Part shown: piece by piece, positions 13,280 through 63,880 of the stretch
Numbering within the stretch: the first letter of the stretch is position 1
Layout: the number at the start of each line of letters is the position of its first letter
Source of the DNA: Candidatus Nomurabacteria bacterium
Lineage (GTDB): Bacteria > Patescibacteriota > Minisyncoccia > Phycocordibacterales > UBA9973
Direction of reading: 5' to 3'
Length of the DNA stretch: 64,000 bases
Assembly (NCBI GenBank): GCA_963832025.1
Contig: CAWHSF010000002.1
Coordinates: 17,496 to 81,495 of the forward strand
The notes under the pieces: generated by a model
Databases searched by the model: none
Seen by the model: the letters and a program-made list of their open reading frames with translations, nothing else
What the model was told of the DNA's origin: nothing
Position numbers and translations under genes: made by a program

Positions 13280-13290
13280 TCTTTATATTC

Positions 13291-18426: not shown

Positions 18427-18488
18427 AATTCAATCATTGTATCTAAAAAACCGCCTTTTTGCAAAGACGGTTTTTCTTTATAGAGTTT

Positions 18489-19415
18489 TTATTGAGCTGG
18501 TATGAAGGGTACTTTTTTGTATTGAGATAGTGGAATAGCTTCGGTAAAACAATAACGCCCTGCTGGATGACTCCACGTACTATATGCATTAGGAACTATC
18601 TCTTCGTTTTCTTGGGCTGTTGAATCTTTATTAAACACTGCGCACAAAGAATATGCTTTTGCGCTTTGACCAATCAAATGATATTCGTAAGAATTTTTGG
18701 TCTGAGGGTCTGTCGGTGGAACATAATAATTATTTGAACTAGATAAATCAGAGATGGAACCTGGAATAGAACCGTTCAGTTGATAATATTCTTGTACTTG
18801 ATTATTTATGTTTTGCAAATCCGAAATTCTCTGCTCATCATATTTTAATAATTGCTGTGTGCGAGGTGAACCAAGCACAGAAAAACCCCAAACAATTGAA
18901 CCCAAAATCAGTACACAGAAAATTCCCGTCCAGATTTTTCGAAGCTTAGAGTCTAACCTCCCCATAGAATCAAAAATATAGTAAAGGAATATAGCCAGAG
19001 CAATAATAAAAACCGTTATAATTTTCAAGACAAATCCCGTAGTCAATTCTTGTCCATCAATAAAATAATAAAGAATGGTCACTAAATCGCCGGCAATCGC
19101 CAGTCCGGCGAAAAACAAAGTTATATATGTCAACCATTTACGCACACTTAAATTTCTCTTTTCCGGAACAGCTCTATAGCTCCTTTCCAGAAGCCACATC
19201 AGTAAAATATAAATTGGGGAAAAAATAATCAATGTTGAAACAGGAAAACTGATTGAATAGGAAGAATAATCGTAATAATTCGAACCGGTCACTAACGGAT
19301 AAGCTTTATTGATAACCGTGAAAAGTAAATCGACCAAATTAAAAACAATTGTTCCTAAAGCGACGATTGCACCTAAATTTATAAAAAAATCTTTGGCACT
19401 TGTTTTTGTTTCCAT
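18489..19415 (-). CDS. Hypothetical polytopic membrane protein with soluble C-terminal domain
   Basis: 308 aa. Several TM helices in the N-terminal two thirds are followed by a hydrophilic C-terminal domain (YYVPPTDPQTKNSYEY...). I do not recognise a family with confidence. Confidence 0.55.
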   Translation of the reverse strand: METKTSAKDFFINLGAIVALGTIVFNLVDLLFTVINKAYPLVTGSNYYDYSSYSISFPVSTLIIFSPIYILLMWLLERSYRAVPEKRNLSVRKWLTYITLFFAGLAIAGDLVTILYYFIDGQELTTGFVLKIITVFIIALAIFLYYIFDSMGRLDSKLRKIWTGIFCVLILGSIVWGFSVLGSPRTQQLLKYDEQRISDLQNINNQVQEYYQLNGSIPGSISDLSSSNNYYVPPTDPQTKNSYEYHLIGQSAKAYSLCAVFNKDSTAQENEEIVPNAYSTWSHPAGRYCFTEAIPLSQYKKVPFIPAQ

Positions 19416-39645: not shown

Positions 39646-40900
39646 ATGACCAAAACCATAAAAATACTTATAATCGGCAATGGGTTCGGAGGAATGTATA
39701 GTTTAAAGAATATTTATAAACAATTGCGTGACCACCAAAACATTGAACTATCAATGATTGGAGAGAAAAATTATTTTCTCTTTACGCCACTTTTACACGA
39801 AGTAGCCACCGGAGGAATAAACCCTCTAAATATTATTGAGCCAATACGAAAAGTTTTAGGCTGTTATTTAAATAATTTTTATCTAGGAAAAGCCGAGGAA
39901 ATAAACTTGCAGAATAAAACTGTAATGGTTGACAAAGTACTTATACCTTACGACTATCTGGTAATTGCTCCAGGATCAGAAACAAATTTTTTCAATACTC
40001 CCGGCACAGAAAAATATACGTTTACGTTGAAATCTATAAACGATGCAATCAGAATAAAAAATCATTCCATAATGCAGATGGAACGGGCTTCACACATAAA
40101 AGACAGTAAAGAAAGAAAGAAAATGCTTAGATTTTTGATCGTTGGAGGTGGACCGACTGGCGTAGAGTTAGCGGCAGAGATGGAAGAATTGGTCAGAGAA
40201 ACTTTTTCTCATTATTATAGAAAAGAAATAGTGGACGATGTATCAATTGTTTTGGTACAAGGAGGGGAGAGAATTAGTGCCTCAGTTTGGAAAAAAAATA
40301 CGGGAGAAGAGTTTATCTGTGTTGCAAAAAAAAGGAGTAGAAGTAATGCTCAACTCCATCGTTAAAAAAGTTGAATCATCCTACGTTGTGATTAATGACG
40401 AAAATAAAATTTTCACAGAAACAGTCATTTGGGTAGGTGGTGTAAAACCGGCCAGTTTAAACTTTGACCAACCCGTAGAAAAAGACAAGAGTGGAAAGTT
40501 GATAATCAATGAATATCTACAATTAGAAAATTACAAAGAAGTCTTTGCTATTGGTGATATTGCTTGCTTTAAAAATAAAGATGTCGTTTTGCCCGCTTTA
40601 GCACAAGTCGCTCAAAAAGAGGCAAAAAAAGTTGCGAAAAATATAAAATTTCTAATCGATGGATATACTCCGGAGAAATTTTCTTATCACAGCTCTGGCA
40701 ACTTGATGTCCCTCGGTCAGTGGATGGCCCTAGGTGAAATAGAAAAATTTTCTTTCAAATTTTCTTTCTCGGGCCATCTGGCTTGGTGGTTCTGGAGAAC
40801 GGTTTATCTTTCAAAATTAATATCTTTCAGGAAAAAAGTTCGCGTCGCTGTAGATTGGACGATGAATATCTTTTCTCCGAGAGACATTTCGCAGTTATAA
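39646..40900 (+). pseudogene. ndh: Type II NADH dehydrogenase (NDH-2) with one +1 frame break
   Basis: ORF1 has ILIIGNGFGGM and IVGGGPTGVELAAEM, then leaves the homologous frame after ...IVLVQGG. ORF2 continues RELVPQFGKKIREKSLSVLQKKGVEV.... The break is at the G-run 40264-40267. Confidence 0.8.
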
Positions 40901-49745: not shown

Positions 49746-50273
49746 ATGAGTACATGGAAAATTGACACAGCCCATTCGGAAATTGGTTTTAAAGTAAGAC
49801 ATCTTATGGTTACTACTGTGCGCGGTACATTCAATAAGTTTGAGGGAAGTGTAGAAACGGTAGATGATGATTTAACCAAAGCAAAAATTAATTTTAGCGC
49901 AGACGTAAATAGCATCAACACAAACAATGATATGAGAGACGGCCACTTGAAATCGCCAGATTTTTTTGATGCTACCAAGTTCCCCACTCTTTCATTTAAA
50001 TCTAGTAGTATTAGCAAGAAAGCAGATAACGATTTCTTAGTTACTGGAGACCTCGCAATGCACGGGGTCACAAAACCAGTTACTTTTGACGCTGTTTTTA
50101 ATGGCCAAAGTATTAACATGCATAAAAATAAAGTTATGGGTTTTGAGATATCAGGAGCATTGTCTCGCAAAGATTTTGGGTTGACTTGGAATGCACCTGT
50201 TGAAACCGGCGGTGTAACTGTATCAGACGAAGTGAAAATGGATATGAGCGTAGAATGCGAGGAAATAAAATAA
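49746..50273 (+). CDS. YceI-family polyisoprenoid-binding protein
   Basis: 175 aa with WKIDTAHSEIGFKVRHLMVTTVRGTF, the canonical YceI N-terminus. Confidence 0.85.
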   Translation: MSTWKIDTAHSEIGFKVRHLMVTTVRGTFNKFEGSVETVDDDLTKAKINFSADVNSINTNNDMRDGHLKSPDFFDATKFPTLSFKSSSISKKADNDFLVTGDLAMHGVTKPVTFDAVFNGQSINMHKNKVMGFEISGALSRKDFGLTWNAPVETGGVTVSDEVKMDMSVECEEIK

Positions 50274-50405
50274 TGGAATTTGAGGGGATGATTCTTACGC
50301 CAAATTAGCTAAGGTGCGCAGATATTATGATACGGTAGTAGAAACCTTAAAATAGGAGTACAATTACAGAAAGGTCAATCTATTATTAATTAAAATAATT
50401 TGCAT

Positions 50406-50780
50406 ATGTACATATCTATTGTTTTGGCTCAGATGTTAGGGATTAGTTTTGCTCTTTTGGGTTTATCAATGTTGTTCAATCAAAAATGGACAAATGTGGT
50501 CGTGGAAGAAATAACAAAAAACCAAGCGGTCATTTGGTTCGCAGGATTAATCACTTTGCTGCTCGGTTCAACAATCGTTGTTTTAAACAATGATTGGACT
50601 TCTGGGTTGCCACTATTAGTCACTGTTTTAGGTTGGTTAATCTTAATCAAAGGAGCAGTTATCGTACTCTTTCCCGATTTTACGATTTCCTATTATAGAA
50701 AAATGAATAAAGGAAATATTTTTATGTGGGGTGGATTGATTGTTTTCGTTTTAAGTTTAGTTTTGCTTTTCTATAGATAA
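50406..50780 (+). CDS. Hypothetical four-TM membrane protein
   Basis: About 124 aa and hydrophobic throughout. ATG 50406 lies just inside the TTG-initiated track ORF. Confidence 0.5.
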
Positions 50781-51265
50781 CTATCAAAATAAATAGCGTG
50801 ACAAGTGTATCCGCCGGGATTTTTCTCTAGATAATCCTGATGGTATTCTTCTGCCTGATAAAACTTTACAAGTGGTTCCAGAGTAGTGACCACAGGGTTT
50901 TTCCAGCGCTTGGACTTATTAACAATATCTATAAAATTTTCCGCCTCTTTCCTTTCTTCTTCGTCTCCATAAAAAATGGCAGAACGATACGATGTTCCTC
51001 GATCGTTTCCCTGCTGATTTAATGTCGTCGGGTTGTGGATTTGAAAAAAGAAATCTAGCAATTTTTTATATGAAGTTTTTTCCGTATCATATTCAATCTC
51101 CACCGCTTCGGCATGTCCCTCATGATTATGATATGTAGGATTTTCTACTTTTCCTCCGGTATAACCGACAGTGGTGTTTACCACCCCAGGTTGTTTCCTG
51201 ATTAAATCCTCTAATCCCCAAAAACACCCTCCGGCCAAAATTATTTTTTTGATTTTATTTTCCAT
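50771..51265 (-). CDS. msrA: Peptide-methionine (S)-S-oxide reductase
   Basis: 164 aa with the GGCFWG active-site motif and YHQDYL. Confidence 0.9.
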
Positions 51266-51269
51266 ATTT

Positions 51270-51641
51270 TTATTTCCCCGGAATAAATTTCATTGAAATT
51301 GAGTTCACGCAATGACGAATGTTTTTTTCCGTAAATCCTTCACCGGTGAATAAATGCCCCAAGTGTCCCCCACACTTTGCGCAAGTTATTTCTGTACGCA
51401 TTCCATCTTTGTCGACACTTTTGTGGACGGCGCCAGGAATCTCGTCATCAAAAGACGGCCAGCCACAGGTTGATTCAAACTTATCTTTTGAATTATAAAG
51501 TGGCGCTTCGCATTGTCTGCACACGTAAACACCCGTTTCTTTGTTGTTCACATATTCACCCGTAAATCTAGCCTCGGTGCCTTTATCAATAATTACTCTT
51601 TTTTCTTCTGGTGTAAGTTGATTCATATAGTTTTTATCCAA
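51270..51641 (-). CDS. msrB: Peptide-methionine (R)-S-oxide reductase
   Basis: 123 aa with two CxxC pairs (CRQC, CAKC) and RHCVNS. Confidence 0.9.
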
Positions 51642-53415
51642 ACGTAAATGTATAAGCGTCTAATGTCCCACTAACAACATCTATTTCAATTGTATGTGTC
51701 CCATAGCTACTGCCATTCACTATATTATACAGACGATTCTCTTTTATGGTTGCAGTACCGTCAGCATTGACATCTGCTCCTCTGTCTGTAGTGAGCGGTT
51801 TCCCGTCTAAAATAATTTTTACATTAGCACCAAGAGCTGAGCTTGCCACAAAATATAAATTCTTTGCATCATATTTGTAAACAATTTTTGCATTTACGTC
51901 CGAAGTCTCGGCATATTCGGGATTAAAATTCCAAGAACCTGCTAGATATAAATTATCTAAAGAAATATTATCAGGAATGGAAAGCTCTTGTACTCCGGAA
52001 ACATTTTGTTGTCCATTTGCTAAATATTCATTTCTATTCGAACCAAAATATGTTTCCGGACTATTGACTTGGCCTGGGTTAATACTGACGGCATTTACCG
52101 GTGTCACTATTCCACTCGAGACTGGTCCACTACCTAAAATACTTGCACGCTCCGCCAACGCTTTTTGTATTGCTTGTTCAGTCACATCATAATCTCCCTC
52201 CCCTGCATGGTCATGTACAATAAAACCATCTATATCAATCAAATATTCTCTCGGCCAGTATTGATTTCCAAATGCATTCCAAGTGCCGTAATCATTATCC
52301 AAAACAACCGGGTACTTTATTCCTAGGCTTGTGACAGCATTCTGAACATTACTCTGTACTTTTTCAAAAGAAAATTCCGGAGTATGAATACTGACAATTT
52401 CCAGACCTTGGTCGGCATATTTTTGATACCAAGCCTTTAAATAAGGCAAAGTTCGCAGACAATTTATACAACTATAAGTCCAAAAATCAACCAGCACAAC
52501 TTTCTTACCGACAAAACTGGAAAGTGTGATTGGTTGACCGTCGGTATTTATAAAACCACTTGGATCGGTGATTTCTGGCTCTTTTTGATATATCAAAGAT
52601 TTCATTTTTATGCGGTCTGCCGTAGATAACCCTGGTTGAATAGTAGGAGTGTTGGCCAACGGAGTAGTTTCTGAATTAATATTATTTGTGTTTGTTTGAT
52701 TGTTCAAAAGACTTTGTTCGATTTTAGTAACATCAAAAATGTGATTAGACACCAACACTTCAAATTTTTGATCAAAACCGAAAACAATAGCGACGCCCAA
52801 AATCAAAAATATCACGCCGACAATGCGCTTCAGCCACCCCCTACTATCAGATGCATAACCTAATTTTTCTATCGCTTTTTGACTCAAAACACTAATCACA
52901 AAAAGAAACCCGCACAAACCGACAGCATAAGCCAAGAGGTCAACAAACCCAGCTCCGAGACTTTTCGGTAAAACAGTAGCGAGAATTAAAAAATATGTGG
53001 GACTACAAGTGGAAAAGACCGGCCCAAGCGCAGCTCCCATGATTACATCTCCGATAAAATTATTTTTTTTGTAGCCAGTTGCCAATAAACGATTAGAGTC
53101 AAGGTTTATTTTGCCGACAAAAGGAATGCGTTCCCAAATGCTTGGGAAAATCATTATGAAACCGAGAATAGAAATAATCACTCCGGAAAATATTTGCCAA
53201 AATGATTGCGGAATATTTATAAAAAGCGTACTGACTTTCAGGATAAAAGTAAATAAAATAACAGAAACACCGAGCGACACTGTAACTACAAGCGCACGCA
53301 TCTTGTTATGACCATCCGCGATATTACCGCCGACAATCACCGGCAACAGAGAAATGGTGCACGGAGCGAGAACCGTTAAAACTCCGGCCAAAAATGAAAT
53401 GAAAAATAAAATCAT
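51634..53415 (-). CDS. DipZ-like fusion: CcdA/DsbD transmembrane thiol-disulfide transporter, TlpA-like thioredoxin domain and C-terminal beta-rich domain
   Basis: 593 aa with an N-terminal polytopic CcdA-like region ([10 protein letters not shown]...), thioredoxin fold WTYSCINC, and a C-terminal domain of about 190 aa. Confidence 0.78.
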
Positions 53416-53466
53416 GGACTAGTATTATACTAAAATAGTTGTAAAGTTAGCAACTATTATAAAAAG

Positions 53467-53497
53467 AAAAATCCCCGTCGAAAAAGGGATTTTTCTT
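53467..53497 (-). terminator. Putative rho-independent terminator after the Ala/Thr-rich secreted protein gene
   Basis: AAAAATCCC-(10 nt)-GGGATTTTT with a T-run. The GC stem is short. Confidence 0.45.
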
Positions 53498-53525
53498 TTT
53501 AAGTTTTTTATGGAAAAGAATCAGT

Positions 53526-53975
53526 TTAACTGCCACTTACTTCAGAAACAGAGTTTACAGAATCAGAAACACCGGTTGGAGCTTTACATGCTTTTGTAGC
53601 TGTTCTAAATGCAGTCCAAGCAGCATTGCGACTTGTTCTCCAAGTCAAAGTTGCAGCTTTGATAGATTTAGAAAAATCAGCCCAAGCGGTTTTAACTCCT
53701 ATCTTTACTGTGGCTACCGTAGTATTTGAATATGCACCTGCTAATTCTATGACACGAGTGGAATATGCGGCACTCACAGCAGTTGCATGTGCAGTAACTG
53801 CAGCATCAATCGCTGCTTCTCTGGTAGCCACCGCTCCTCCTACGCAAGCAATTTTAGTAGCTGTTGTGGAAACTGTGGTGGTGCCTGCACTAGTAGTGGT
53901 TTGAGCCAAGACCGGAGATACTGCCAAAGTTAAAGCCAACAACATGACAGAAATCATCAAAATTTTCTTTATCAT
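53526..53975 (-). CDS. Secreted Ala/Thr-rich hypothetical protein
   Basis: Signal peptide MIKKILMISVMLLALTLAVSPVLA followed by low-complexity A/T-rich helical repeats. Start moved to ATG 53975. Confidence 0.55.
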   Translation of the reverse strand: MIKKILMISVMLLALTLAVSPVLAQTTTSAGTTTVSTTATKIACVGGAVATREAAIDAAVTAHATAVSAAYSTRVIELAGAYSNTTVATVKIGVKTAWADFSKSIKAATLTWRTSRNAAWTAFRTATKACKAPTGVSDSVNSVSEVSGS

Positions 53976-54030
53976 TTTGTCGTTAATTAATTTTAAATTA
54001 CTAATAATACCGACCTCTATATATAATATA

Positions 54031-54519
54031 TTAAAAAATAACAATGACAAGAAAAATAATTAGAATTTGAGATAAAACACCGATGACGGGTTTGTCGTCT
54101 ATTCTATATTTTGTATGGGCCCAATTATGAAGTCTTTGAAATGTCGTTAATGGTTCACATTTCCATTTCCAATAACAAAATTGTAATGCATCTGGCGTCA
54201 TTCCTCCTATCGCGCCAAATAGAATTATTAAAAAAGAATGTGGATGTAATGCTCCGACTAAAATAAAAGACAATAATAATCCTAAAATCCCATCAATACC
54301 AATTTTTATAAAATCTACATAAGATTCCTTACGGATGATTAGTTTAGTATTTAAAGAATTTTGTTTATCTTTTTCTAAACTAGCGACGGAGTAAGACCAG
54401 TGCGGTATCGCATCCAAAAGATAATGGCTTCCAAAGCCAATAACAAAACCCAAAACTGGATAACTTGGAACCAAGGTAGCCAGCGTGGCGCCAACGACCG
54501 CGTGTGTTGTGAGTGTCAT
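54031..54519 (-). CDS. Membrane-bound metal-dependent hydrolase (YdjM/DUF457-like)
   Basis: 162 aa with TTHAVVGATLA and a DAIPH motif plus four TM helices. Confidence 0.6.
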   Translation of the reverse strand: MTLTTHAVVGATLATLVPSYPVLGFVIGFGSHYLLDAIPHWSYSVASLEKDKQNSLNTKLIIRKESYVDFIKIGIDGILGLLLSFILVGALHPHSFLIILFGAIGGMTPDALQFCYWKWKCEPLTTFQRLHNWAHTKYRIDDKPVIGVLSQILIIFLVIVIF

Positions 54520-54791
54520 GTTGCTATATTAACATTTCTATTTGAAAAAGCTAAAATATATCTATGATATTCTTATTAATCATATTTGTATTAATAGGTT
54601 TATTGTTACATGGTATTGTCGGTGGATTGATTGGGGTGGGAATAACATGCGTTTTATGGTGTCTTGTTTCTACGTTTTCCTAATTTATCTACTTACAATA
54701 AGTTGAACCCAGAGATGGTAAATCCCCATCCAGATATCGTTTGTTGTGAAATTGAGCTGTTTTTATGGGAAAAATTTGATAGAATAATTTC

Positions 54792-55046
54792 ATGACCAAA
54801 AAAGAAACTACCACTAATCTGCCTCATAAAATGCCAGCGGACTTTAGAGAAGCTCTGGCTTCTTCGCCCGTAGCAAAAGCAACATGGGATGATACTACCC
54901 TTCTCGCACACAATGAATGGATATGTTGGGTAATATCAGGTAAAAAAGCGGAGACAAGGGGTATACGCATCAAGAAAGCTCTCTCAAAACTTAAGGGCGG
55001 AATGCGCCGACCATGCTGTTGGGCTGGTTGTATTCATCGCAAATAA
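54792..55046 (+). CDS. YdeI/OmpD-associated family protein
   Basis: 84 aa with MPADFREALASSPVAKATWDD...HNEWICWVISGKKAETR, typical of this family. Confidence 0.65.
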   Translation: MTKKETTTNLPHKMPADFREALASSPVAKATWDDTTLLAHNEWICWVISGKKAETRGIRIKKALSKLKGGMRRPCCWAGCIHRK

Positions 55047-55135
55047 AATTAGTTTTTAAAATTATTTAACTTCACATGTCTGGCAAAACATTCCTACGCA
55101 TTTTTTGATTATAGCAAATATATTAAATTCTGTTG

Positions 55136-55163
55136 ACTCCGCACATAGAAAAATGTTCGAAAT
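55136..55163 (+). repeat. Degenerate copy (R0) of the GCTCCGAAC...GATGTTCGAAT intergenic repeat
   Basis: ACTCCGCACATAGAAAAATGTTCGAAAT compared with the minimal copy GCTCCGAACCTGGGAGGATGTTCGAAT (63854). Confidence 0.5.
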
Positions 55164-55189
55164 CTTTTTGTGGAGGGAATTAAAATATC

Positions 55190-55960
55190 TTAGAGTTGTT
55201 TTATTGATTTCTTTGAATCTCCTTGTAGGGTGGCAAAAGCTTCTTGGACTGTTGTCATAAACTGAGCTGGAAAGATAATTGTAGAATTTTTTTCAGTAGC
55301 AATTTCAGCCATTGTTTGAAGAGTACGGAGCTGCAAAGCAACCGGATGCGCGGCGATAAGGTCTGCCGCTTGACCTAATTTCTCGGCTGCTTGAAATTCG
55401 CCTTGGGCAGCCACAATTTTAGCACGACGTTCACGTTCTGCTTCCGCTTCTTTGGCCATCGCTCGTTGCATATTGTCGGGCAAGACAATATCTTTAATTT
55501 CCACAGCTGTTACTTCTGCACCCCATGGTTCTGTATGAGAATCAATCACATCTTTAATTTGAATATTAATGTCACTTGTTTGGGAAAGCAATTGGTCTAG
55601 AGAGAAACGCCCAACAACATTTCGTACTGTTGTCTGGCTGATTTGATTTACCGCATTGTAAACATTTTCAATTGCCACAACAGACTTTTGCGAATCAACG
55701 ATGTGATAATAAGCAACTGCGGCAATGTCAATTGATACGTTATCTTTGGTAATAATTTTTTGTGACGGAATATTCATGGTAATCGTACGTAATGTTACCT
55801 TGGTCATAAGTTCAAAAAAAGGAATTAGAAAAATAAGTCCCGGACCACGCACTCCTGTGCATTTACCAAGAAAAAAGATAACGCCACGGTCATACTCTTT
55901 TACCACTCTCAATGAAAACACAAGCAATACTACGATAATTCCTAAGATTATATATATCAT
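55190..55960 (-). CDS. SPFH/band-7 (stomatin-like) protein
   Basis: 256 aa with an N-terminal TM helix, [14 protein letters not shown] and an [12 protein letters not shown] coiled coil. Confidence 0.88.
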
Positions 55961-55972
55961 AAATAATTAAGA

Positions 55973-56155
55973 TTATTTCCAGGTGTAAAGGTGCACCGCA
56001 ATATACATGGCGAGCATGCCAAGTGCGAAGCCTGCGCATACTGTGACGACGTCATGGAAGGGTTTCCAAATTACCCCAAACCATGAGAGTGTGAGAATAA
56101 TTGCCCACACGACAGCTACTCCGATTACATACACATAAAGAGGACGTTTGTTCAT
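55973..56155 (-). CDS. Small two-TM membrane protein upstream of the stomatin-like gene
   Basis: 60-aa ORF with two hydrophobic helices, tightly coupled to the SPFH gene. Confidence 0.5.
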   Translation of the reverse strand: MNKRPLYVYVIGVAVVWAIILTLSWFGVIWKPFHDVVTVCAGFALGMLAMYIAVHLYTWK

Positions 56156-56204
56156 GGATACATTATACCATACTTTGTTGGAAAAAACTTATCTAAACGA
56201 AAGT

Positions 56205-56247
56205 CACCCCGGCATGTAGGTCGAGGGACCTTCATTGTGCCGGGGTG
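56205..56247 (-). terminator. GC-rich hairpin terminator of the higher-GC orphan gene
   Basis: CACCCCGGCA-(23 nt)-TGCCGGGGTG lies immediately downstream of the stop at 56254. Confidence 0.6.
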
Positions 56248-56253
56248 GTGATG

Positions 56254-56583
56254 TCAGAAGCAAGGACTTTGCTCAATTATGTCCGGTGGATTATCGTCGT
56301 TCTCCTTGCAGAGAGCGACAACTTGAGCCCATTTCGGCCCAAACTTGCCATCGGGTTTCAGCCCTTCGACTGGAACACCGAACACCAGTGCAGCGTTGAT
56401 GAAGTCGTCGCATTGACCCGGATACCTGCTTGCTCTCTCAACAGCCAAGAGAAACAAGCGAAACTTCTTCTCGGGAACTTCATCCACTAGTTTGATCTGA
56501 TCCCATTCGAGATCCCCCCGCGAAGCTGAGAGAATAAGAACTGCGCTTACGAAGTAAGCGCTTCTTTTCCATTTTTTGTTCAT
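56254..56583 (-). CDS. Orphan secreted/lipid-anchored protein in a locally GC-rich island
   Basis: MNKKWKRSAYFVSAVLILSASRGD... (109 aa). A strong AAGGAG RBS sits 5 nt upstream of ATG 56583. The composition is visibly more GC-rich than the flanks. Confidence 0.6.
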   Translation of the reverse strand: MNKKWKRSAYFVSAVLILSASRGDLEWDQIKLVDEVPEKKFRLFLLAVERASRYPGQCDDFINAALVFGVPVEGLKPDGKFGPKWAQVVALCKENDDNPPDIIEQSPCF

Positions 56584-56654
56584 TAGACTCCTTATTTCGA
56601 TTTGGTAGTACAAACTCAATATTGGTTTAACATAAAAAAACAAGGATGTCACGC

Positions 56655-56701
56655 TGACTTCGAACACAGTAAGTCTTTAGGCTCGAATGAGATGTTCAAA
56701 T
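56655..56701 (+). repeat. Divergent copy (R7) of the intergenic repeat family
   Basis: GACTTCGAACACAG...GCTCGAATGAGATGTTCAAAT. Its 3' part matches the R3 tail GACTCGAATGAGATGTTCGAAT. Confidence 0.6.
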
Positions 56702-56706
56702 TGTTT

Positions 56707-57090
56707 TCATCTTTCAACACTCAAGGCCTCTTGAATATCTTCTGGAAAATCAGACATTTCTTGTATCTGACGAATATCGACTACCCCATCTTGAAATGGG
56801 ATTTGCTTAGCCCAAGCAATTGCATCTTCTTTTGTTTCTACTTTGATAATCCAGTAACCGGCAACTAATTCTTCAGGGTTTGGAAATGGACCGTCAGTAA
56901 CCGTGGGTTCATTGTTGGAAAATAAAATTCTCGCTCCTTCAGAACTAGGGTGTAAACCATCAAGTGCAATCAAAACACCTGCATCTTGAAGTTTTTTATT
57001 ATATTTTTCCATCACAACAAACATCTCTTTGTCGGGCAAAGCACCTTTTTCAATCTCTTTGTTACTCTTTACAAACATTATGAATTTCAT
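56707..57090 (-). CDS. YciI/DGPF-family protein
   Basis: 127 aa with DGPFPNPEELVAGYWIIKVETKEDAIAWAKQIP, typical of the YCII-related domain. Confidence 0.75.
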   Translation of the reverse strand: MKFIMFVKSNKEIEKGALPDKEMFVVMEKYNKKLQDAGVLIALDGLHPSSEGARILFSNNEPTVTDGPFPNPEELVAGYWIIKVETKEDAIAWAKQIPFQDGVVDIRQIQEMSDFPEDIQEALSVER

Positions 57091-57103
57091 GAGTTTAATT
57101 AAA

Positions 57104-57544
57104 TTAAATTATAAAGCTAAACACCAAAACAATTACCAAAAATGTCACTAAATTTGATAGCGAATCAGAGAAAAATTTCTTCCATCTTAATTTTTGATCA
57201 ATGTTTCCCCAAAGCAAAGATTGCCCAATTATTGGAACAACAAAACAAAGCCAGACGGCAAACACTTCCCCATAAATAATTGCAGAGCCAAAAGTTTTTT
57301 GTTCTATCATTATAAAAGCTATAAAAGCGGATGTCAGAAACGAAAGAAACATCTGTGCTAAATAATATTTCCACATTTTTGGTTTCATTTCTTTCATTTT
57401 CAAATCTTGCTCTTCCTTGGAAAATTTAGAAAAACCAGTGGACTCTAAATGAACTTTCCCCATCGGAGTTTTCATCGAATACCAAAGTGACCCGATCACA
57501 GCACTGATAATAGCACCCAAAATTCCAAGTAAAATTATTGTCAT
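57104..57544 (-). CDS. DUF1761-like membrane protein
   Basis: 146 aa with four TM helices and N-terminus ILGAIISAVIGSLWYS. Confidence 0.6.
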   Translation of the reverse strand: MTIILLGILGAIISAVIGSLWYSMKTPMGKVHLESTGFSKFSKEEQDLKMKEMKPKMWKYYLAQMFLSFLTSAFIAFIMIEQKTFGSAIIYGEVFAVWLCFVVPIIGQSLLWGNIDQKLRWKKFFSDSLSNLVTFLVIVLVFSFII

Positions 57545-57620: not shown

Positions 57621-57703
57621 GCTCTAAACCTGCTTTGCTCTTCCAAAGTTTTAACGAAGGAGAGGGAGAGTTTACGCTGAGCTAGCTGAAGTGATGTTCG
57701 AAT
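57621..57703 (+). repeat. 83-bp intergenic repeat R1 (long form)
   Basis: GCTCTAAACCTGCTTTGCTCTTCCAAAGTTTTAACGAAGGAGAGGGAGAGTTTACGCTGAGCTAGCTGAAGTGATGTTCGAAT is 79/83 identical to R2. Confidence 0.92.
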
Positions 57704-57735
57704 TAGTTTACTTGATGAGAAGTCTTGATGAAGAA

Positions 57736-58668
57736 TTATAATTCATGCTGTTTTTTAAAGATAAACAGCTTATATAATAAAAAGAGGGCTGGTAAAAGAA
57801 TAATCATTCCGACAGCAAAACTCCATTCAATTAAAGTGAGAGATGTACTATTGGTAATGCTCGAAACAAGTGTAGTAGTCGGATAAACAATATAAGGTAA
57901 ATGCGCAATAAATAATCCCCAAAAAAACGTAGCCATGCATGCACACAAAAAAACAAAACTCCATGCATAGGCATCGACTACTTCTGTGATTAAAACTGCC
58001 GCAATGCAAAAAAGCATAATGCCTGCTATCCATGCCTCTATATTATTATTTACAAAAAGATACGGCAGGTCACGAGCGATAGTAATTAAAAAAAACGTTG
58101 CAGATAGAAAGAATAAGGTACCACTTAAACGTAAGAATTTTGTGAGTCTCACGTTTTTTTTGTAAACTCTAAAAAATGCAAGGGTCATAGTAGCAATATA
58201 GGCAATGGTGCTGAAAGAAAGCCAAAAATAAAGGGAGGTCTTAATATATAAGACCCAAGAACCAGTAAAAAAATATAAGAAAATTAGGGCGAAAAGGATT
58301 GGTACGATAAAACTGGTGAGAAAATAAATAACATCAATGGTCTTTGATTTTACATCACTGTATTGCTTAAATAAAATACAAATAATGCGCACAGAAAAAA
58401 TAATTAAAGTGGTAAATGTAATAGTGAACAAATCGGTACCCCATCTAGATGTTGCGCCAGGAAAACATGCAAACATCGAAGTTAGGGAAAAAACTAAAAA
58501 CACACTTGTTGTCTCCCATATCGGATTTAAATATTCGCGTATCGTATCTTTTTCAGGCAGTAAATTCGGGAAAACAGCAAAAATCGAAGACCCAAATTCA
58601 ATTGAAGAAAAAATAAAATATATAAAAAGAGAAGAAGCAGTTACAAAAAAAGCTATATTTTCTTTCAT
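57736..58668 (-). CDS. cydB: Cytochrome bd-type oxidase subunit II
   Basis: 310-aa polytopic protein translationally coupled (4-nt overlap) to the subunit I gene. Confidence 0.75.
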   Translation of the reverse strand: MKENIAFFVTASSLFIYFIFSSIEFGSSIFAVFPNLLPEKDTIREYLNPIWETTSVFLVFSLTSMFACFPGATSRWGTDLFTITFTTLIIFSVRIICILFKQYSDVKSKTIDVIYFLTSFIVPILFALIFLYFFTGSWVLYIKTSLYFWLSFSTIAYIATMTLAFFRVYKKNVRLTKFLRLSGTLFFLSATFFLITIARDLPYLFVNNNIEAWIAGIMLFCIAAVLITEVVDAYAWSFVFLCACMATFFWGLFIAHLPYIVYPTTTLVSSITNSTSLTLIEWSFAVGMIILLPALFLLYKLFIFKKQHEL

Positions 58669-60065
58669 ATATCAGATTTATCATTAATAAAGTATTCTGT
58701 ATCTAAATCTAGCTTTGTACGATTATAGTGACGAATCAAAATCCATGGAGTCAGAATAAGAAGAATCGTATAGATGCTTGGGAAAATAGAGCCGAACTCA
58801 ATCACTGTTTTAGAAGTCGTAAACGCTTGTGAGACGGTCATAATTCCCCGTATCACATAGGGCTGACGTCCCACTTCTGTTACTATCCAACCAAATTCCA
58901 TTGCAAGAAAAGAAGCTGCCCCGCTTAAGACTATAAGACCGAGTATTATGTGCGAGAAAGCATGTTTTCTTTTCCAAAAAAATAAAATAAAAAATAAAGT
59001 CACCACAAAAGCAATATACATGCCGAAGAAAACCATAAGGTCAAACATCGCATGAATCCAGAGTGGCGGCCAGGTATTTGGATTAAATGAATCAAGACCT
59101 CGTACCACCGCCGTTTCCCGACCAAAAGAAAGAAAACTCAAAAGTCTTGGTATTTGAATTGCATCTTCAAGGTGGCCGTTTCTTTCTATTCCTCCAATTT
59201 CCATTGGTGCGCCAGCTTGCGTGTGCTCCGCGATCTCGGCAGCGGCAAATTTAAGTGGTTCATTATTTGCAATGTATCGGGCAGATTGATCGCCAGTAAC
59301 AGTCATCAGTAAAGCGAAAACCGTGCCAATGACCATTGTGTACACAAGCGCCTTTTTGCGATAAGTTCTCAGTTTTTCGTGTTCCCTTTCGTCAGGAATA
59401 ATATTTTTTTTCTTTAGTAAATGTTTCGTTCTGTGCTTGTGGAAACCTAGACTCCACGCATAGATACCTGCAAAAACGAGCGCAGTGGTTAAATAATAAG
59501 AGACAATAGAGTGTGTCGTTTCAGTATACGTTGCCTTATTGAACATCGCAGCGATAGGATTGATATTTGAGGCTACTCCATTTGTATACATAAAACCAGC
59601 TGGGCTGTTCATCCACGCATTTGCGGTGGTAATAAAGAAGGCAGAAGCAAGTGAACCCAGCACGATAGGTAGCGAGCAAAGCCAATGTGTATATTTATTT
59701 TTAAAACGATCCCAAGAATATAAGTAAATTCCGAGAAATATTGCCTCAATAAAAAAAGCAAAACCCTCCATGTAAAATGGAAGTCCGATAACCCTGCCGG
59801 CAAGCGCCATAAAATTTGGCCAAAGCATACTGAGTTGATTGGAAATGATCATGCCAGAAACAGCTCCTACTACAAAAAGTGTACCCATAGCAAAACTCCA
59901 CCGTCTGGCCATAGTATAAAAATCATTGTCTTTTTTAAAAATACCGATAAGCTCTGCGAGCGAAATAAGCAAAGGAATACCCACTCCAAAAAGCGCAAAT
60001 AAAATATGAAATCCAAGAGAATCTCCCATGAAAACACGACCGGCTGAAAGTGAATTTCCATTCAT
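58665..60065 (-). CDS. cydA: Cytochrome bd-type ubiquinol oxidase subunit I
   Basis: 466 aa with GWIVTEVGRQPYVI and N-terminal FHILFALFGVG, typical of CydA. Confidence 0.85.
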   Translation of the reverse strand: MNGNSLSAGRVFMGDSLGFHILFALFGVGIPLLISLAELIGIFKKDNDFYTMARRWSFAMGTLFVVGAVSGMIISNQLSMLWPNFMALAGRVIGLPFYMEGFAFFIEAIFLGIYLYSWDRFKNKYTHWLCSLPIVLGSLASAFFITTANAWMNSPAGFMYTNGVASNINPIAAMFNKATYTETTHSIVSYYLTTALVFAGIYAWSLGFHKHRTKHLLKKKNIIPDEREHEKLRTYRKKALVYTMVIGTVFALLMTVTGDQSARYIANNEPLKFAAAEIAEHTQAGAPMEIGGIERNGHLEDAIQIPRLLSFLSFGRETAVVRGLDSFNPNTWPPLWIHAMFDLMVFFGMYIAFVVTLFFILFFWKRKHAFSHIILGLIVLSGAASFLAMEFGWIVTEVGRQPYVIRGIMTVSQAFTTSKTVIEFGSIFPSIYTILLILTPWILIRHYNRTKLDLDTEYFINDKSDI

Positions 60066-60142
60066 CTGAAAATTATATCACAAAGATATAGAAAAGCTGG
60101 CTGTTATATTTAGCTCTTGCTTCATTTTAAGTAAAAAGCTTT

Positions 60143-60225
60143 GCTCCGAACCTGCTTTGCTCTTCCGAAGTTTTAACGAAGGAGAGGGAGAGTTTACGCT
60201 GAGCTAGCCGAAGTGATGTTCGAAT
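60143..60225 (+). repeat. 83-bp intergenic repeat R2 (long form)
   Basis: GCTCCGAACCTGCTTTGCTCTTCCGAAGTTTTAACGAAGGAGAGGGAGAGTTTACGCTGAGCTAGCCGAAGTGATGTTCGAAT. Confidence 0.92.
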
Positions 60226-60243: not shown

Positions 60244-60519
60244 CTAGAATATACCTGGCCCATCTCCATCTAAATACCACTTTCCTTCTATATTAACTAT
60301 TTTTATAGTCTGACCAGACGAAGTCTTACATATACCATAGGTATCAGTTTTTTCCAGCAACTGAACACAGCCCCTAAAAGCGTAGTAGTTTTCAAAAGTG
60401 CTGTGTACCTCGCGCAGATAAAACCACTGACTTATTGCAAGTCCTATTACTATTCCTGCGATAAAAGCTAATATCCGTGCCCATAAACATTTTTTCAAAG
60501 TCATTCTAATTGTTTCCAT
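60244..60519 (-). CDS. Hypothetical membrane-anchored small protein
   Basis: 91 aa with one TM helix (ILAFIAGIVIGLAISQWF) and a small soluble domain containing two Cys. Confidence 0.5.
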   Translation of the reverse strand: METIRMTLKKCLWARILAFIAGIVIGLAISQWFYLREVHSTFENYYAFRGCVQLLEKTDTYGICKTSSGQTIKIVNIEGKWYLDGDGPGIF

Positions 60520-60651
60520 ATGCTAAAAGCATATCACAAGTTCGAACTTCTACTAAGTTAGAAAAAATAACCGTTGAAAATTATGGTTTATTTTGATACT
60601 CGTTCGAGAGAGTTTAATGGAAAGACCGGCTTAATTTGTTATAATACTGAA

Positions 60652-61104
60652 ATGATGAATCCTATGATTTTTCTTTTAATAAACACAGCCCTAGGGTTTT
60701 ACAACGTAGGCACAATTTGGGCAATGGAAGTTGATATTTTTCGATCTTGGAAATTAGTTGGTCTAGAAAATTTTCGTAATATTCAAGAAGTTCATTGGAG
60801 GAAACTTCCCTATTGGATTTTTACACCTGTTTGTCTAGCTTTAATTGGTTCTATTATTCTTTTTTGGTATCACCCCCAAGGTTCACCCATCTGGGCAATC
60901 TGGGGAGTTTTTCTTTCTCAATTTTTATCTTTGGTGCTTACTGGAATTTTCTGGGGTCAATGGCAAGCCAAGCTAAGTAAAGATCCTCTCGGACCACAAA
61001 GTATATATCTTACTAAAATACTCAAAACCCATTGGGTGAGAACTTTACTAATTAATCTTTCCGCTATAATTTTGATTATTTGGATAATTCAATTGATGCA
61101 TTAA
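60652..61104 (+). CDS. Hypothetical four-TM membrane protein
   Basis: MMNPMIFLLINTALGFYNVGTIWAMEVD.... I prefer ATG 60652, which lies 6 nt after a TGTTATAAT box and may be leaderless. Confidence 0.5.
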   Translation: MMNPMIFLLINTALGFYNVGTIWAMEVDIFRSWKLVGLENFRNIQEVHWRKLPYWIFTPVCLALIGSIILFWYHPQGSPIWAIWGVFLSQFLSLVLTGIFWGQWQAKLSKDPLGPQSIYLTKILKTHWVRTLLINLSAIILIIWIIQLMH

Positions 61105-61106
61105 TT

Positions 61107-61124
61107 CTGGGAGGATGTTCGAAT
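61107..61124 (+). repeat. Truncated copy (R6) of the intergenic repeat (3' end only)
   Basis: CTGGGAGGATGTTCGAAT is identical to the 3' 18 nt of R5 and starts 3 nt after the stop codon. Confidence 0.7.
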
Positions 61125-61210: not shown

Positions 61211-61286
61211 TGCAAGAATTACGTCGTCGAGGGTATTCCATCCTTCAGATGACTTAATTGTCCTTTACGGACACAAGGAGATTTTG

Positions 61287-61712
61287 ATGACTACCTTTAA
61301 TTTCACTGCAAGTTGTCTGATCGCCACAGAATTCATGCTACGAGTACTCAACGGAAAGTGGCAAGGAGGAAAACTCCAAGGTCCACCGAGTTGGGCGAGC
61401 AGAGTACCGTTCTTTTCGAAGATTACCGCTACCCCAATTAAAACATCGGCCCATCCAGCAAGCTATCGCTTGCTAGGCGCAACTTGGACCAAGGTGAAAC
61501 GAGAAGTGTCATTCTATCGGTTCGGTTTGTTGTTTGCGACTATAACTCTTTCAGGCTCGAAATATGGAAATGAGCTTGATAATGAATCGTCGTGGCGCGT
61601 AACAAAGATTCGTTGCGCTATGACGTGGGTTGGTTCTCTGGAAGATCTTGAGCCTAAAGATTGGATAGAAATTGAGGTCCAAGGAGAACCAAGTAAGATT
61701 AGTGTTCTGTAA
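61287..61712 (+). CDS. Orphan protein in a locally GC-rich segment
   Basis: 141 aa with an AAGGAG RBS 7 nt upstream and its own terminator. No family recognised. Confidence 0.55.
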   Translation: MTTFNFTASCLIATEFMLRVLNGKWQGGKLQGPPSWASRVPFFSKITATPIKTSAHPASYRLLGATWTKVKREVSFYRFGLLFATITLSGSKYGNELDNESSWRVTKIRCAMTWVGSLEDLEPKDWIEIEVQGEPSKISVL

Positions 61713-61734: not shown

Positions 61735-61760
61735 GCCCCGTGCTCCGTGTGCGGGGTTTT
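61735..61760 (+). terminator. Rho-independent terminator
   Basis: GCCCCG-tgctccgtgtg-CGGGG followed by TTTT. Confidence 0.65.
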
Positions 61761-61782
61761 CATTTATTATGTAATTTTGCTT

Positions 61783-61833
61783 GCTCCAAACCTGGGACAG
61801 TTTACACTGAGCTAGTCGAAGTGATGTTCGAAT
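61783..61833 (+). repeat. 51-bp copy (R4) of the intergenic repeat (internal deletion form)
   Basis: GCTCCAAACCTGGGACAGTTTACACTGAGCTAGTCGAAGTGATGTTCGAAT. Confidence 0.88.
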
Positions 61834-61891: not shown

Positions 61892-62131
61892 ATGGAACAA
61901 AATCCTAAAGATAAACCAAAAGTAGGTGGTATAGAAAAAGGAGCAATATCATTGGGAAGACTAGAGAATAATAATGTTCGAAAAATTGAATTGGGTAAAG
62001 TTTATCCTATGGAAGATATTGAGCTTATGTTTGACGCAAGGTTGGGGGAACAATTAAAAACCATGTTGAAGAAACATTTTGAATACACGATTGATAATGG
62101 AAAAATTACCTTTACTAAAAAGGTAGGTTAG
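61892..62131 (+). CDS. Hypothetical small protein
   Basis: 79-aa ORF bounded by repeats R4 and R3. No family recognised. Confidence 0.45.
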   Translation: MEQNPKDKPKVGGIEKGAISLGRLENNNVRKIELGKVYPMEDIELMFDARLGEQLKTMLKKHFEYTIDNGKITFTKKVG

Positions 62132-62156: not shown

Positions 62157-62251
62157 GCTCCGAACCTGCTTTGCTCTTCCGAAGTTTTAACGAAGGAGAG
62201 GGACGTCGTTCAGACTCTGAGAGTCTTCAGACTCGAATGAGATGTTCGAAT
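62157..62251 (+). repeat. 95-bp copy (R3) of the intergenic repeat (alternative internal module)
   Basis: GCTCCGAACCTGCTTTGCTCTTCCGAAGTTTTAACGAAGGAGAGGGACGTCGTTCAGACTCTGAGAGTCTTCAGACTCGAATGAGATGTTCGAAT. Confidence 0.9.
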
Positions 62252-62279: not shown

Positions 62280-62843
62280 TTATAGTACCCAGAGAGGCTT
62301 ATAACGAAGAAAAATATTCCCTGATTTAAATTCATGGACTTTAACAAGTTTTAGTTTATACCTTTTTTCTATGTTTAAAAATAAAGATTTACCTTTACCG
62401 AGGATTACTGGGTTTATAATTAAACGATATTCATCAATCACCCCTAAATCAGCAAGAGCAGATACAATCATACCACTGCCAAAAATGGCAATATCTTTAC
62501 CTTCTGCTTGTTTTATTTTTTTTATTTCGTCTGCATTAATTTCAGAAAATATTTTTGAATTATTCCAAGCAAGTTCCTCTTTGGTTTTAGAAAAAACAAT
62601 CTTAGACAGGCTATTCATTTTATCTGCAACAATTGGATCATCCTTTAAGGCATTCTCTGTAGGCCAATAATTTGCCATGAGCTCGTAAGTAATACGACCA
62701 AACATAAGAGTATCTAAGGTATTGAGAAATTTAATAGCATAGTCATTAAATTCAGCGTCAACATTATGCCAATCGATTTCACCATCTGGTCCAGCAAAAA
62801 AACCATCAATCGTGATCATTTCTTGTACAATTATTTTTCTCAT
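62280..62843 (-). CDS. Dihydrofolate reductase-like (RibD C-terminal domain) family protein
   Basis: MRKIIVQEMITIDGFFAGPDGEIDWH...FGRITYELMANYWP...IFGSG. Start moved to ATG 62843. Confidence 0.75.
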   Translation of the reverse strand: MRKIIVQEMITIDGFFAGPDGEIDWHNVDAEFNDYAIKFLNTLDTLMFGRITYELMANYWPTENALKDDPIVADKMNSLSKIVFSKTKEELAWNNSKIFSEINADEIKKIKQAEGKDIAIFGSGMIVSALADLGVIDEYRLIINPVILGKGKSLFLNIEKRYKLKLVKVHEFKSGNIFLRYKPLWVL

Positions 62844-62847
62844 GGGA

Positions 62848-63246
62848 TTATTTTGGTTTCCACTCAGTGGCTTGGAGCAAGCCAAAGACATTGCCTTCAG
62901 TATCTATCGCACGAGAGAACCAACCCAGGCCTTTCATTTCCCACTTCTCTTTTCCCTCCCAGGGTTCAATCTCCCCACCATTAGCCTTAATAGCTGTGAT
63001 TACTTTATCAATGTCATCCACCAAAACTGTACAATCAAAACTGTTGAGTTTACCCATGGCATCCTTTCGTTTAAAAAGTCCACCATCAATTCCAGGCCCC
63101 TCTCCGGTCATCACCATCCAATAATCCATCCCGACACCAGGCATCTTTGATTTTTCTATCTTCCAACCAAGAGTATTTTCGTAAAACTTTTTTGCCCGTT
63201 CGGCATCGTCCGCTTGAACCTCAAAATGTATTGGTCTATTTGACAT
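62848..63246 (-). CDS. VOC/glyoxalase-family protein
   Basis: MSNRPIHFEVQADDAERAKKFYENTLGWKIE...GGL.... Start moved to ATG 63246. Confidence 0.72.
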   Translation of the reverse strand: MSNRPIHFEVQADDAERAKKFYENTLGWKIEKSKMPGVGMDYWMVMTGEGPGIDGGLFKRKDAMGKLNSFDCTVLVDDIDKVITAIKANGGEIEPWEGKEKWEMKGLGWFSRAIDTEGNVFGLLQATEWKPK

Positions 63247-63300
63247 ATTTAATATATAAAAAATTAATTTATAAACTCGACTAATTATATTATGACACAC

Positions 63301-63774
63301 TCATTTCCCCACCTTTTTCAATGTTTCAATATCAATCTTCTTCATCTGTAACATTGCTTCCATTTTTTCTTTTGCAATTTTTGGATTAGCATCTTCAAGT
63401 AATTCCGACATATTTTCTGGAACAATCTGCCATGAAACTCCAAACTTGTCTTTCAACCAACCGCATTGTTCCGATTCTTTAACTGCCGATAGTTTTGTCC
63501 AGTAAGAATCAATTTCTTCTTGTGACTGACACGGTATTATAAAAGATACAGCTTCATTCGCCTTAAAAAAAGGACCACCATTTAATGCCAAAAAAGGATT
63601 ACCATCGAGTTCGAAAGATACAGTCAAGACACTACCTATAGGCTTGTTGGAGGGTGATTCGGTACTGTATCGAGCAACATGCAGAATCTTAGAATTCTTG
63701 AAAACCGAAACATAAAAATTCGCCGCTTCCTCAGCTTCACCATCAAACCAAATACAAGGTGTAATTTTTTTCAT
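63301..63774 (-). CDS. VOC-superfamily protein (PhnB / 3-demethylubiquinone-9 methyltransferase-domain-like)
   Basis: MKKITPCIWFDGEAEEAANFYVSVFKNSKI...DKFGVSWQIVP, typical of this family. Confidence 0.75.
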   Translation of the reverse strand: MKKITPCIWFDGEAEEAANFYVSVFKNSKILHVARYSTESPSNKPIGSVLTVSFELDGNPFLALNGGPFFKANEAVSFIIPCQSQEEIDSYWTKLSAVKESEQCGWLKDKFGVSWQIVPENMSELLEDANPKIAKEKMEAMLQMKKIDIETLKKVGK

Positions 63775-63853: not shown

Positions 63854-63880
63854 GCTCCGAACCTGGGAGGATGTTCGAAT
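63854..63880 (+). repeat. Minimal 27-bp copy (R5) of the intergenic repeat
   Basis: GCTCCGAACCTGGGAGGATGTTCGAAT consists of the two conserved ends joined directly. Confidence 0.85.

Follow-up and report, generated by a model that had tools for sequence, protein, structure and literature searches.

For bacteria of the Candidate Phyla Radiation (CPR), whose genomes are tiny, few routes of horizontal gene transfer have so far been reported. Here we analyzed a stretch of 64,000 nucleotides from a Candidatus Nomurabacteria bacterium (assembly GCA_963832025.1, contig CAWHSF010000002.1, positions 17,496 to 81,495), referred to below as the window. In this DNA the genes of a cytochrome bd oxidase, cydA and cydB, are bracketed by two direct repeats, R1 and R2. 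An initial annotation had described the repeats as 95% identical, had noted that they flank exactly the cydAB operon and had proposed that the oxidase is a mobile or acquired unit inserted or excised by recombination between them. The repeats were borne out: both lie on the plus strand, span 83 nt and agree at 79 of 83 positions, while 0.00 matches to their sub-patterns were expected by chance (100 dinucleotide-preserving shuffles). The coordinates of genes and repeats were equally exact (Table 1), with the cydB stop codon 32 nt from the end of R1 and the start of R2 77 nt upstream of the cydA start codon. However, the two do not form a dedicated pair. At least nine co-oriented sites of one family are present, R1 and R2 being two of them, and this family led us to a different view of how the oxidase genes may have arrived.

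cydAB lies within an array of co-oriented sites

All family sites of the window lie on the plus strand and between genes, where they separate units of one to three genes. The basic form is a 27-nt site, GCTCCGAACYTGGGASGATGTTCGAAT, of which R1 and R2 are long variants. We call it the A site, and its canonical form is represented by the insert-free 27-mer at 63854. The alignment of the sites is modular: conserved ends, GCTCCGAACCTG and GATGTTCGAAT, surround a central GGAS motif, and up to three kinds of insert, M1 (32 nt), M2 (24 nt) and M3 (36 nt), can be present in the centre. R1 is composed of a left arm (L, GCTCTAAACCTG) with two mismatches to the family consensus, module M1, GGAG, module M2 and a right arm (R, GATGTTCGAAT).

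The sites are limited to 54.7-63.9 kb of the window and show a gradient of decay from right to left. The site at 63854 is perfect, those at 62157, 61783 and 60143 have intact arms, the one at 57621 (R1) carries its two mismatches, and those at 56670, 55136 and 54754 are heavily decayed. The two copies beside cydAB follow the same trend. At each of the four positions at which they differ, R2 has a CpG and R1 has TpG, CpA or TpA. All four differences are thus CpG dinucleotides lost in R1, which would agree with R1 as the older, more distal copy and with deamination-type decay of that copy.

The 27-nt site forms arrays across CPR classes

A scan of species-representative genomes detected the site in metagenome-assembled genomes (MAGs) of CPR bacteria, namely Saccharibacteria, Paceibacteria, Nomurabacteria and Patescibacteria. 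Two other matches came from a contig labelled Cytophagales and from an Acidobacteriaceae MAG, where the match probably arose by chance. The Cytophagales-labelled contig (L013, JBBRUH010000084.1) carries a typical CPR-type array of seven sites together with a second motif, the B motif described below, and is probably a misbinned CPR contig. At least 120 site-bearing stretches were recovered by a scan of metagenomes. The viral contigs of IMG/VR contained no site, and a viral origin was rejected on this ground.

Co-oriented arrays were present in more than 130 CPR contigs. A position weight matrix scan of the loci gave 283 sites, all of them on the array strand (0 on the opposite one). Individual loci never had sites on both strands, and neighbouring sites were a median of 894 bp apart. 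Across loci there were 222 short and about 20 long copies, the inserts always being central. The short site consists of imperfect 9-bp inverted arms around a 6-bp centre, the left arm being far less conserved than the right one, and partial sites without a left arm occur. The genes between the sites lie on either strand and have unrelated accessory functions, for example peptidases (S41, S66, S49), Fic proteins, nucleotidyltransferases, glyoxalases, HMA-DsbD, msrAB and OmdA-like proteins. Gene families that recur do so in different arrays and beside different neighbours, in a fixed orientation and often at a fixed distance to the site, which is frequently followed by extended -10-like promoters. 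One MAG of Saccharibacteria and one of Nomurabacteria share a 288-bp segment that begins at a site, with 94% identity.

The arrays are anchored at tRNA-Asn(GTT)

Wherever the end of an array was visible, it lay just 3' of a tRNA-Asn(GTT) gene. ARAGORN placed this gene next to the array in 17 loci, always on the opposite strand and with its 3' end towards the array, and the genes were matched by the Rfam tRNA model as well. The decay gradient seen in the window recurred in other genomes: among arrays with four or more sites, site quality rose towards the tRNA-proximal end in 18 of 21 cases (mean Spearman rho 0.43, Wilcoxon p=2.5e-4).

Large serine recombinase genes read into the site or into the tRNA

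We clustered all open reading frames (ORFs) of the site-bearing loci into protein families. The most recurrent family by far, found in 14 loci compared with at most five for any other, was a large serine recombinase (LSR). Its members contain Resolvase, Recombinase and Zn-ribbon domains (L091, L126, L135) and match the TP901-1 integrase and a conjugative-transposon recombinase in the PDB. The only other recurrent recombinase of these loci was an IS30-like transposase (HTH_38 and a weak rve match) in four of them, e.g. L044 489-1490.

Full-length LSR genes end either in an A site (L135, L110, L146) or in the 3' end of tRNA-Asn (L076, L028, L145, L144). The A site thus forms the 3' coding end of LSR genes, which in one subfamily reads ...(W/M)LRTWDDVR... 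and in a second subfamily is translated in another frame as GSEPGTMFE*. As the two subfamilies read the site in different frames, the constraint acts on the DNA and not on the protein. LSR genes that run into the convergent tRNA-Asn end with ACT TGG CTC CGT GGG TAG, i.e. TWLRG and stop. The second subfamily (L110, 4025-4621) also has a member that overlaps a tRNA-Ala(TGC) gene (L126, 8622-10433; tRNA 8700-8773).

An independent test used the C-termini of 120 LSR homologues that were picked by protein similarity alone. About 85 had tRNA-type tails, eight had A-type tails (xTWDDVR) and about 16 had tails encoded by a diverged, D-type site (see below), so that roughly 109 of the 120 corresponded to one of these junction types. 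The last residues of the tRNA-type tails co-vary with the acceptor stem of the tRNA (LRG, LPG, LGR, LRR). C-terminal LSR remnants adjoin sites in five loci (L009, L047, L066, L086, L016). In L016, which is the closest relative of the window, the remnant adjoins the single intact site.

Position of the crossover and an attP/attB-like offset

The 3' ends of the LSR genes share the block (TG)GCTCCG and then enter either the body of the tRNA or the remainder of the A site; in the LSR-tRNA junctions, the AACC...GGGA portion of the latter is missing. Because the ends diverge past this block, strand exchange would take place at or left of GCTCCG, a position that we derive from these junctions.

A second feature distinguishes the two partners. 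The motif TCGAA follows GCTCNN at +11 in 16 of 16 tRNA-Asn genes and at +16 in 36 of 36 A sites. In serine integrases, the motif bound by the zinc ribbon domain (ZD) lies 5 bp nearer the centre in the bacterial attachment site attB (11-19) than in the element site attP (16-24) (Rutherford et al., PMC3783163). The 5-bp shift of TCGAA matches this signature, and TCGAA would then represent the ZD-binding motif. By its sequence, the A site looks like a core followed by an attP-type arm, and the T-arm of the tRNA looks like an attB-type arm.

R1 and R2 depart from this arrangement. In both, the TCGAA arm motif lies about 76 nt from the core and not 16 nt, as inserts of about 60 nt intervene. They are atypical long forms and, given this distance, probably fossils that have lost their function as LSR substrates. 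The long form also contains a TTCCGAAG motif (60154-60170 in R2), about 15-22 nt past the GCTCCG block and thus nearly at the canonical position of TCGAA, so that its first 28 nt resemble a diverged short site.

cydAB in related genomes

The closest homologues of CydA all belong to CPR bacteria, with identities from 87% down to 50%, and are followed by those of Bacillaceae at about 44%. According to published trees, CPR bacteria acquired bd oxidases horizontally (PMC9166423). The neighbours of cydAB differed in every relative that we examined. In the closest one, L016 (CydA 87% identical), cydAB is located in a similar island, homology stops at the ends of the genes, and R1 and R2 are absent. 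A search for an empty site or alternative junctions yielded no such contig in the collections, but only unitigs of the source sample that break off inside the repeats.

The islands of the window and of L016 have further genes in common. Window positions 50100-55046 and L016 positions 8841-18693 share genes for a YceI-like protein, msrA, msrB, a Trx/DsbD fusion, a 162-aa ORF and an OmdA-like protein at 69-78% nucleotide identity, but the order of these genes and the genes between them differ.

Successive integration at tRNA-Asn(GTT) as the probable origin of the array

Taken together, we consider it probable (roughly 0.7) that R1 and R2 belong to an array of att sites produced by successive LSR integrations at the 3' end of tRNA-Asn(GTT). 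According to this model, a CPR-wide LSR family would catalyse the integration of small mobile units, one after the other, at this tRNA. The canonical 27-nt site would consist of the block shared with the tRNA, (TG)GCTCCG, as the probable point of crossover and of an element-borne attP-type arm, AACYTGGGASGATGTTCGAAT. Each new unit would enter at the tRNA and shift older units outward, and the older units would lose their recombinase genes while their sites decay. cydAB would then be the cargo of one of the older units in a tRNA-anchored accretion island. The LSR would recombine these sites, and single units that lack an LSR may be able to move on their own. By analogy with the other loci, the tRNA-Asn at the end of the window's own array would be located beyond position 64000.

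The proposal that cydAB is a mobile or acquired unit is therefore upheld in part. The repeats do bound an accessory unit in a hypervariable region, and their family is tied to a site-specific recombinase, but R1 and R2 themselves may be inactive. As a mechanism, simple recombination between the two flanking repeats gives way to LSR integration and accretion at tRNA-Asn, which is likelier. Repeats of 83 nt with 95% identity are sufficient for rare RecA-dependent deletion, and a homologous deletion of this kind between R1 and R2 could still occur.

Several observations weigh against successive integration. Neither a tRNA gene nor an LSR gene or remnant beyond the site itself was found in the window, and its link to the LSR system therefore rests on the sequence of the sites and on analogy with other genomes. 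cydAB occurs without flanking sites in L016 and also in L018, and neither an excised circle nor an empty site was observed in the collections. Most arrays have no intact LSR in the DNA that was fetched, and the gene is present at only 3 of about 18 tRNA-proximal positions. The left half of the site, which would be the P arm, has no clear dyad symmetry to the right arm, and the long forms R1 and R2 do not fit a functional attP-type arm. Overall, the site resembles the 3' end of the tRNA only marginally (z = 1.8-2.5), a level at which we also rejected the A site as a partial copy of the tRNA. Finally, canonical serine integrases are not known to recombine attP-like junctions with each other, so that simple accretion and decay leave the single-gene spacing of intact sites unexplained.

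An extension of the model is, in our view, possible but rather doubtful. It holds that the LSR and the tRNA-Asn 3' end form a CPR-wide, integron-like platform for gene capture, in which units of one gene, equipped with a promoter and bordered by the 27-nt site, are individually excised, exchanged between distant CPR classes and re-inserted. If this were true, the platform would supply streamlined symbionts with genes for stress, oxygen handling (cydAB, msrAB) and defence.

The analysis suggests that accessory genes of CPR bacteria gather at a single conserved locus immediately 3' of tRNA-Asn, among them a terminal oxidase, methionine sulfoxide reductases, glyoxalases, peptidases, Fic proteins and nucleotidyltransferases, in small units delimited by a recombinase site that is common to Saccharibacteria, Paceibacteria and Nomurabacteria. 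If the model of successive integration is correct, it explains the patchy occurrence of isolated respiratory genes such as cydAB in CPR bacteria. It would also turn the site into a sequence tag for the flexible gene pool of fragmented MAGs, whose assemblies break at these repeats, and would provide a serine integrase family with a predicted pair of attP and attB sites.

Alternative explanations for the repeats

An arrangement in which all A sites are equivalent, exchange takes place at the GGAS centre and cassettes such as cydAB are excised as circles and re-inserted singly, as in integrons, appears unlikely to us. The short site with its inverted arms would suit such a system, as would the units, which are mostly single genes tightly bounded by sites, and the cassettes, which recur beside different neighbours. 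In the window, left parts (L, L+M1) and right parts (R, M2+R, M3+R) are found in four combinations around GGAS; this independent assortment of left and right modules keeps central exchange in contention as a rival. The same combinations could, however, come from insertion, deletion or gene conversion, and the LSR-tRNA junctions without AACC...GGGA place the crossover at or left of GCTCCG instead of at the centre. Equivalent sites would also not be expected to show the 5-bp shift, which fits attP and attB arms, or a left arm that is much less conserved and sometimes missing. Moreover, a search with a XerD seed found no tyrosine integrase, and the sites do not fold like attC.

Much less probable is a reading of R1 and R2 as truncated minus-strand pseudogenes of tRNA-Asn, displaced copies that integrations inside the body of the tRNA would have left behind. 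A permissive alignment makes the reverse complement of R2 colinear with tRNA-Asn from its 5' end to the T-loop, M2 contains a 12/13 match to the D-arm (GGCTAGCTCAGCG), and TTAAC, which on the complementary strand reads as the anticodon GTT plus AA, occurs in M1. Yet neither the Rfam tRNA model (E ≤ 10) nor a tRNA-Asn profile matched the repeats, and the Smith-Waterman scores (z=1.1-1.5) stayed within the range of shuffled sequences and were equalled by 10% of random 83-mers of the window.

The least probable of the four is that the sites are passive intergenic repeats, i.e. elements resembling repetitive extragenic palindromes and bacterial interspersed mosaic elements (REP/BIME), terminator or promoter modules or small RNA genes, and that cydAB could be lost merely through chance recombination between R1 and R2: the mosaic structure with small hairpin-forming inserts, the promoters that often follow the site and the sufficiency of the 83-nt repeats for RecA would agree with it, but the restriction to one region of the window and the strict co-orientation whatever the direction of the genes (283 versus 0), the anchoring at tRNA-Asn, the embedding in LSR 3' ends in two reading frames, folding no better than that of shuffled sequences, the lack of an Rfam match and the conservation of the 27-nt sequence across CPR classes speak against it.

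More specific candidates from known repeat classes were disfavoured by negative results on folding, arm variation, Rfam, recombinases and GC skew. Six sites folded on both strands gave z values of -1.3 to +1.2, no better than shuffles, which led us to reject an attC-like hairpin. Full units from B motif to A site (83-86 nt) folded weakly and inconsistently, and changes at arm positions 6-7 are not compensated at positions 22-23. The sites had no match in Rfam, either at the gathering threshold or at E ≤ 10. A phmmer search with a XerD seed, a negative of moderate strength, revealed no tyrosine recombinase or Xer protein, either in the window or in the 789 kb of DNA that carries the sites. Modules of the dif/Xer type (integrative mobile elements exploiting Xer, IMEX; plasmid dif sites, pdif; an 11-6-11 site at the terminus) were rejected, as no Xer-like protein was found and GC skew shows no terminus-type switch; the XerD-arm consensus also appears to be absent from the site. 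Dispersed repeats of the REP/BIME or miniature inverted-repeat transposable element (MITE) type were rejected because the sites occupy one region and one strand, with none on the opposite strand across loci.

Comparison with known systems

The closest known kind is the tRNA-anchored flexible island formed by successive integrations, as described for the tycheposons of Prochlorococcus (bioRxiv 10.1101/2020.12.28.424599). In both cases, flexible islands lie beside tRNA genes in streamlined genomes, successive integrations at one tRNA move older elements away from it, the island is interspersed with att repeats and degraded integrases, and the cargo is niche-adaptive. Tyrosine recombinases are used by 910 of 937 tycheposon-type elements (bioRxiv 10.1101/2020.12.28.424599), whereas the enzyme linked to the CPR arrays is an LSR; the strict definition of a tycheposon, a tyrosine recombinase plus a replication module, does not apply here. 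The CPR repeat furthermore resembles an attP-like element arm rather than a clear partial tRNA, and the units between intact sites lack replication modules and mostly consist of one gene (median about 0.9 kb).

LSR systems with attP and attB sites (A118/LI, Bxb1, phiC31, TP901-1; PMC3783163) share with the CPR arrays a protein of Resolvase, Recombinase and Zn-ribbon domains, a recombinase gene that abuts the site and an offset of exactly 5 bp between the arm motifs of host and element. Unlike the LSR phages, the CPR arrays contain no phage genes and have no matches to viral contigs. Their target is the 3' end of a tRNA with the recombinase ORF running through the site, many attP-like junctions persist in tandem as an array, and no recombination directionality factor was identified.

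The staphylococcal cassette chromosome SCCmec, integrated at rlmH by ccrAB, and the streptococcal cis-mobilizable elements (CIMEs) are similar in several respects. Integration by serine recombinases (ccrAB) targets the 3' end of a conserved gene, tandemly accreted units are bounded by direct repeats, and many units have no recombinase of their own. They differ from the CPR arrays in recombinase clade, in target (here tRNA-Asn) and in host phylum, and the units of the CPR arrays are far smaller and far more numerous.

Integrons resemble the arrays in their co-oriented sites between mostly single-gene cassettes, in polar entry and in cassettes common to distant hosts. In contrast to integrons, no IntI tyrosine integrase was found, the sites are not folded imperfect palindromes, and the genes lie on either strand, often with promoter-like sequences of their own. 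The CPR arrays differ from these known kinds in the enzyme class (compared with tycheposons), the tRNA-Asn target with a site crossed by the recombinase ORF, the granularity of single genes and the host phylum. In the searchable literature, we came across no account of such an architecture.

Other sites and genes of the window

The remaining members of the array include short, intermediate, long and partial forms (Table 1). Module M3 of S5 is related to the D-type sites (GTTCAGACTC...CTTCAGACTCG). In other genomes, the B-type motif occurs about 50 nt upstream of an A site, directly after the true tRNA-Asn. To the left of R1 lies an older part of the island, several genes of which recur as cassettes in other arrays. 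The msrAB (50.8-51.6 kb) and OmdA-like (54.8-55.0 kb) cassettes have decayed flanking sites in the window and intact ones in L012, whose homologous OmdA-like cassette is preceded by an intact A site at the position that corresponds to the remnant at 54754-54766. The 91-aa protein had no record in the collections.

Table 1. Sites and genes of the cydAB region, in window coordinates
Feature	Position	Strand	Remarks
Older part of the island with decayed sites	50771-57544	-	msrA, msrB, Trx/DsbD fusion, 174-aa and 162-aa ORFs; further genes: OmdA-like (+ strand), SPFH, 60-aa and 137-aa ORFs, YCII, DUF1761
Strongly decayed remnant	54754-54766 (approximate)	+	GAGCTGTTTTTAT
Decayed short site	55136-55162	+	ACTCCGCACATAGAAAAATGTTCGAAA
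Decayed site	56670-56701	+	only end of M3-type insert and R arm left (GGCTCGAATGAGATGTTCAAAT)
S1 (R1), long-form att-type site	57621-57703	+	79/83 identical to S2
cydB, cytochrome bd subunit II, cargo	57736-58668	-	PF02322, E=6e-28
cydA, cytochrome bd subunit I, cargo	58665-60065	-	PF01654, E=2e-108
S2 (R2), long-form att-type site	60143-60225	+	module layout as in S1; both arms match consensus
91-aa ORF, cargo of next unit	60244-60519	-	no Pfam match
B-type motif	60540-60559	+	GTTCGAACTTCTACTAAGT
176-aa ORF, cargo	60574-61104	+	no Pfam match
S3, partial short site	61106-61124	+	CTGGGAGGATGTTCGAAT, left arm missing
142-aa ORF, cargo	61284-61712	+	no Pfam match
S4, intermediate site	61783-61833	+	L-GGAC-M2-R, without M1
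79-aa ORF, cargo	61892-62131	+	
S5, long site	62157-62251	+	L-M1-GGAC-M3-R
Three-gene unit	62280-63774	-	RibD_C-like 62280-62891, glyoxalase/Ble-like 62848-63300, PhnB-like 63301-63774
S6, canonical A site	63854-63880	+	GCTCCGAACCTGGGAGGATGTTCGAAT, perfect consensus match, E=7e-14

The PhnB-like protein matches PF06983, a family named '3-demethylubiquinone-9 3-methyltransferase', which we take to be a PhnB/glyoxalase-fold family and thus not evidence of quinone synthesis. Just upstream of S4, a GC-rich hairpin followed by a T run (61736-61774) resembles a terminator; its sub-threshold match to the Rfam family 'ClpQY_promoter' is probably meaningless. Elsewhere in the window, the ndh gene had been noted as frameshifted, and we confirmed that NDH-2 is split into two overlapping ORFs, one with the N-terminal portion of the Pyr_redox_2 domain (39646-40365) and one with its C-terminal portion and NDH2_C (40238-40900). 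The split is either a frameshift or a sequencing error.

Further elements of the arrays in other genomes

D-type elements of about 110 nt (L006 2372-2480; L011 4575-4685; L013 4836-4943 and 5638-5748) can stand in for the A site after the B motif. Their first 27 nt form a diverged A-like site and also encode the ...L(V/L)DEFRT tail of some LSRs. This match between element and tail sequence suggests a second specificity of site and recombinase.

Some LSR genes abut 3' halves of tRNA-Asn that are cut at an identical point of the anticodon loop (L028, about 1380-1420; L144, 11681-11735), which hints at a second kind of element that integrates into the anticodon loop of tRNA-Asn. One LSR-bearing contig, L146, was considered as a free circular element and rejected, its ends showing no overlap.

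Two conserved segments were noted within the arrays. MAGs of Saccharibacteria and Nomurabacteria share an element of about 95 nt (L010 7432-7530; L011 4460-4553; L006 1022-1119) at about 93% identity; it has no Rfam match and is placed immediately behind terminator hairpins that are unrelated to each other. A non-coding segment of about 260 nt right after the A site (L007 5787-6043; L011 3598-3855) is 94% identical between two CPR classes; its minus strand carries a terminator-like hairpin, the segment may be a small RNA, and similar segment starts were seen in L027 and L141.

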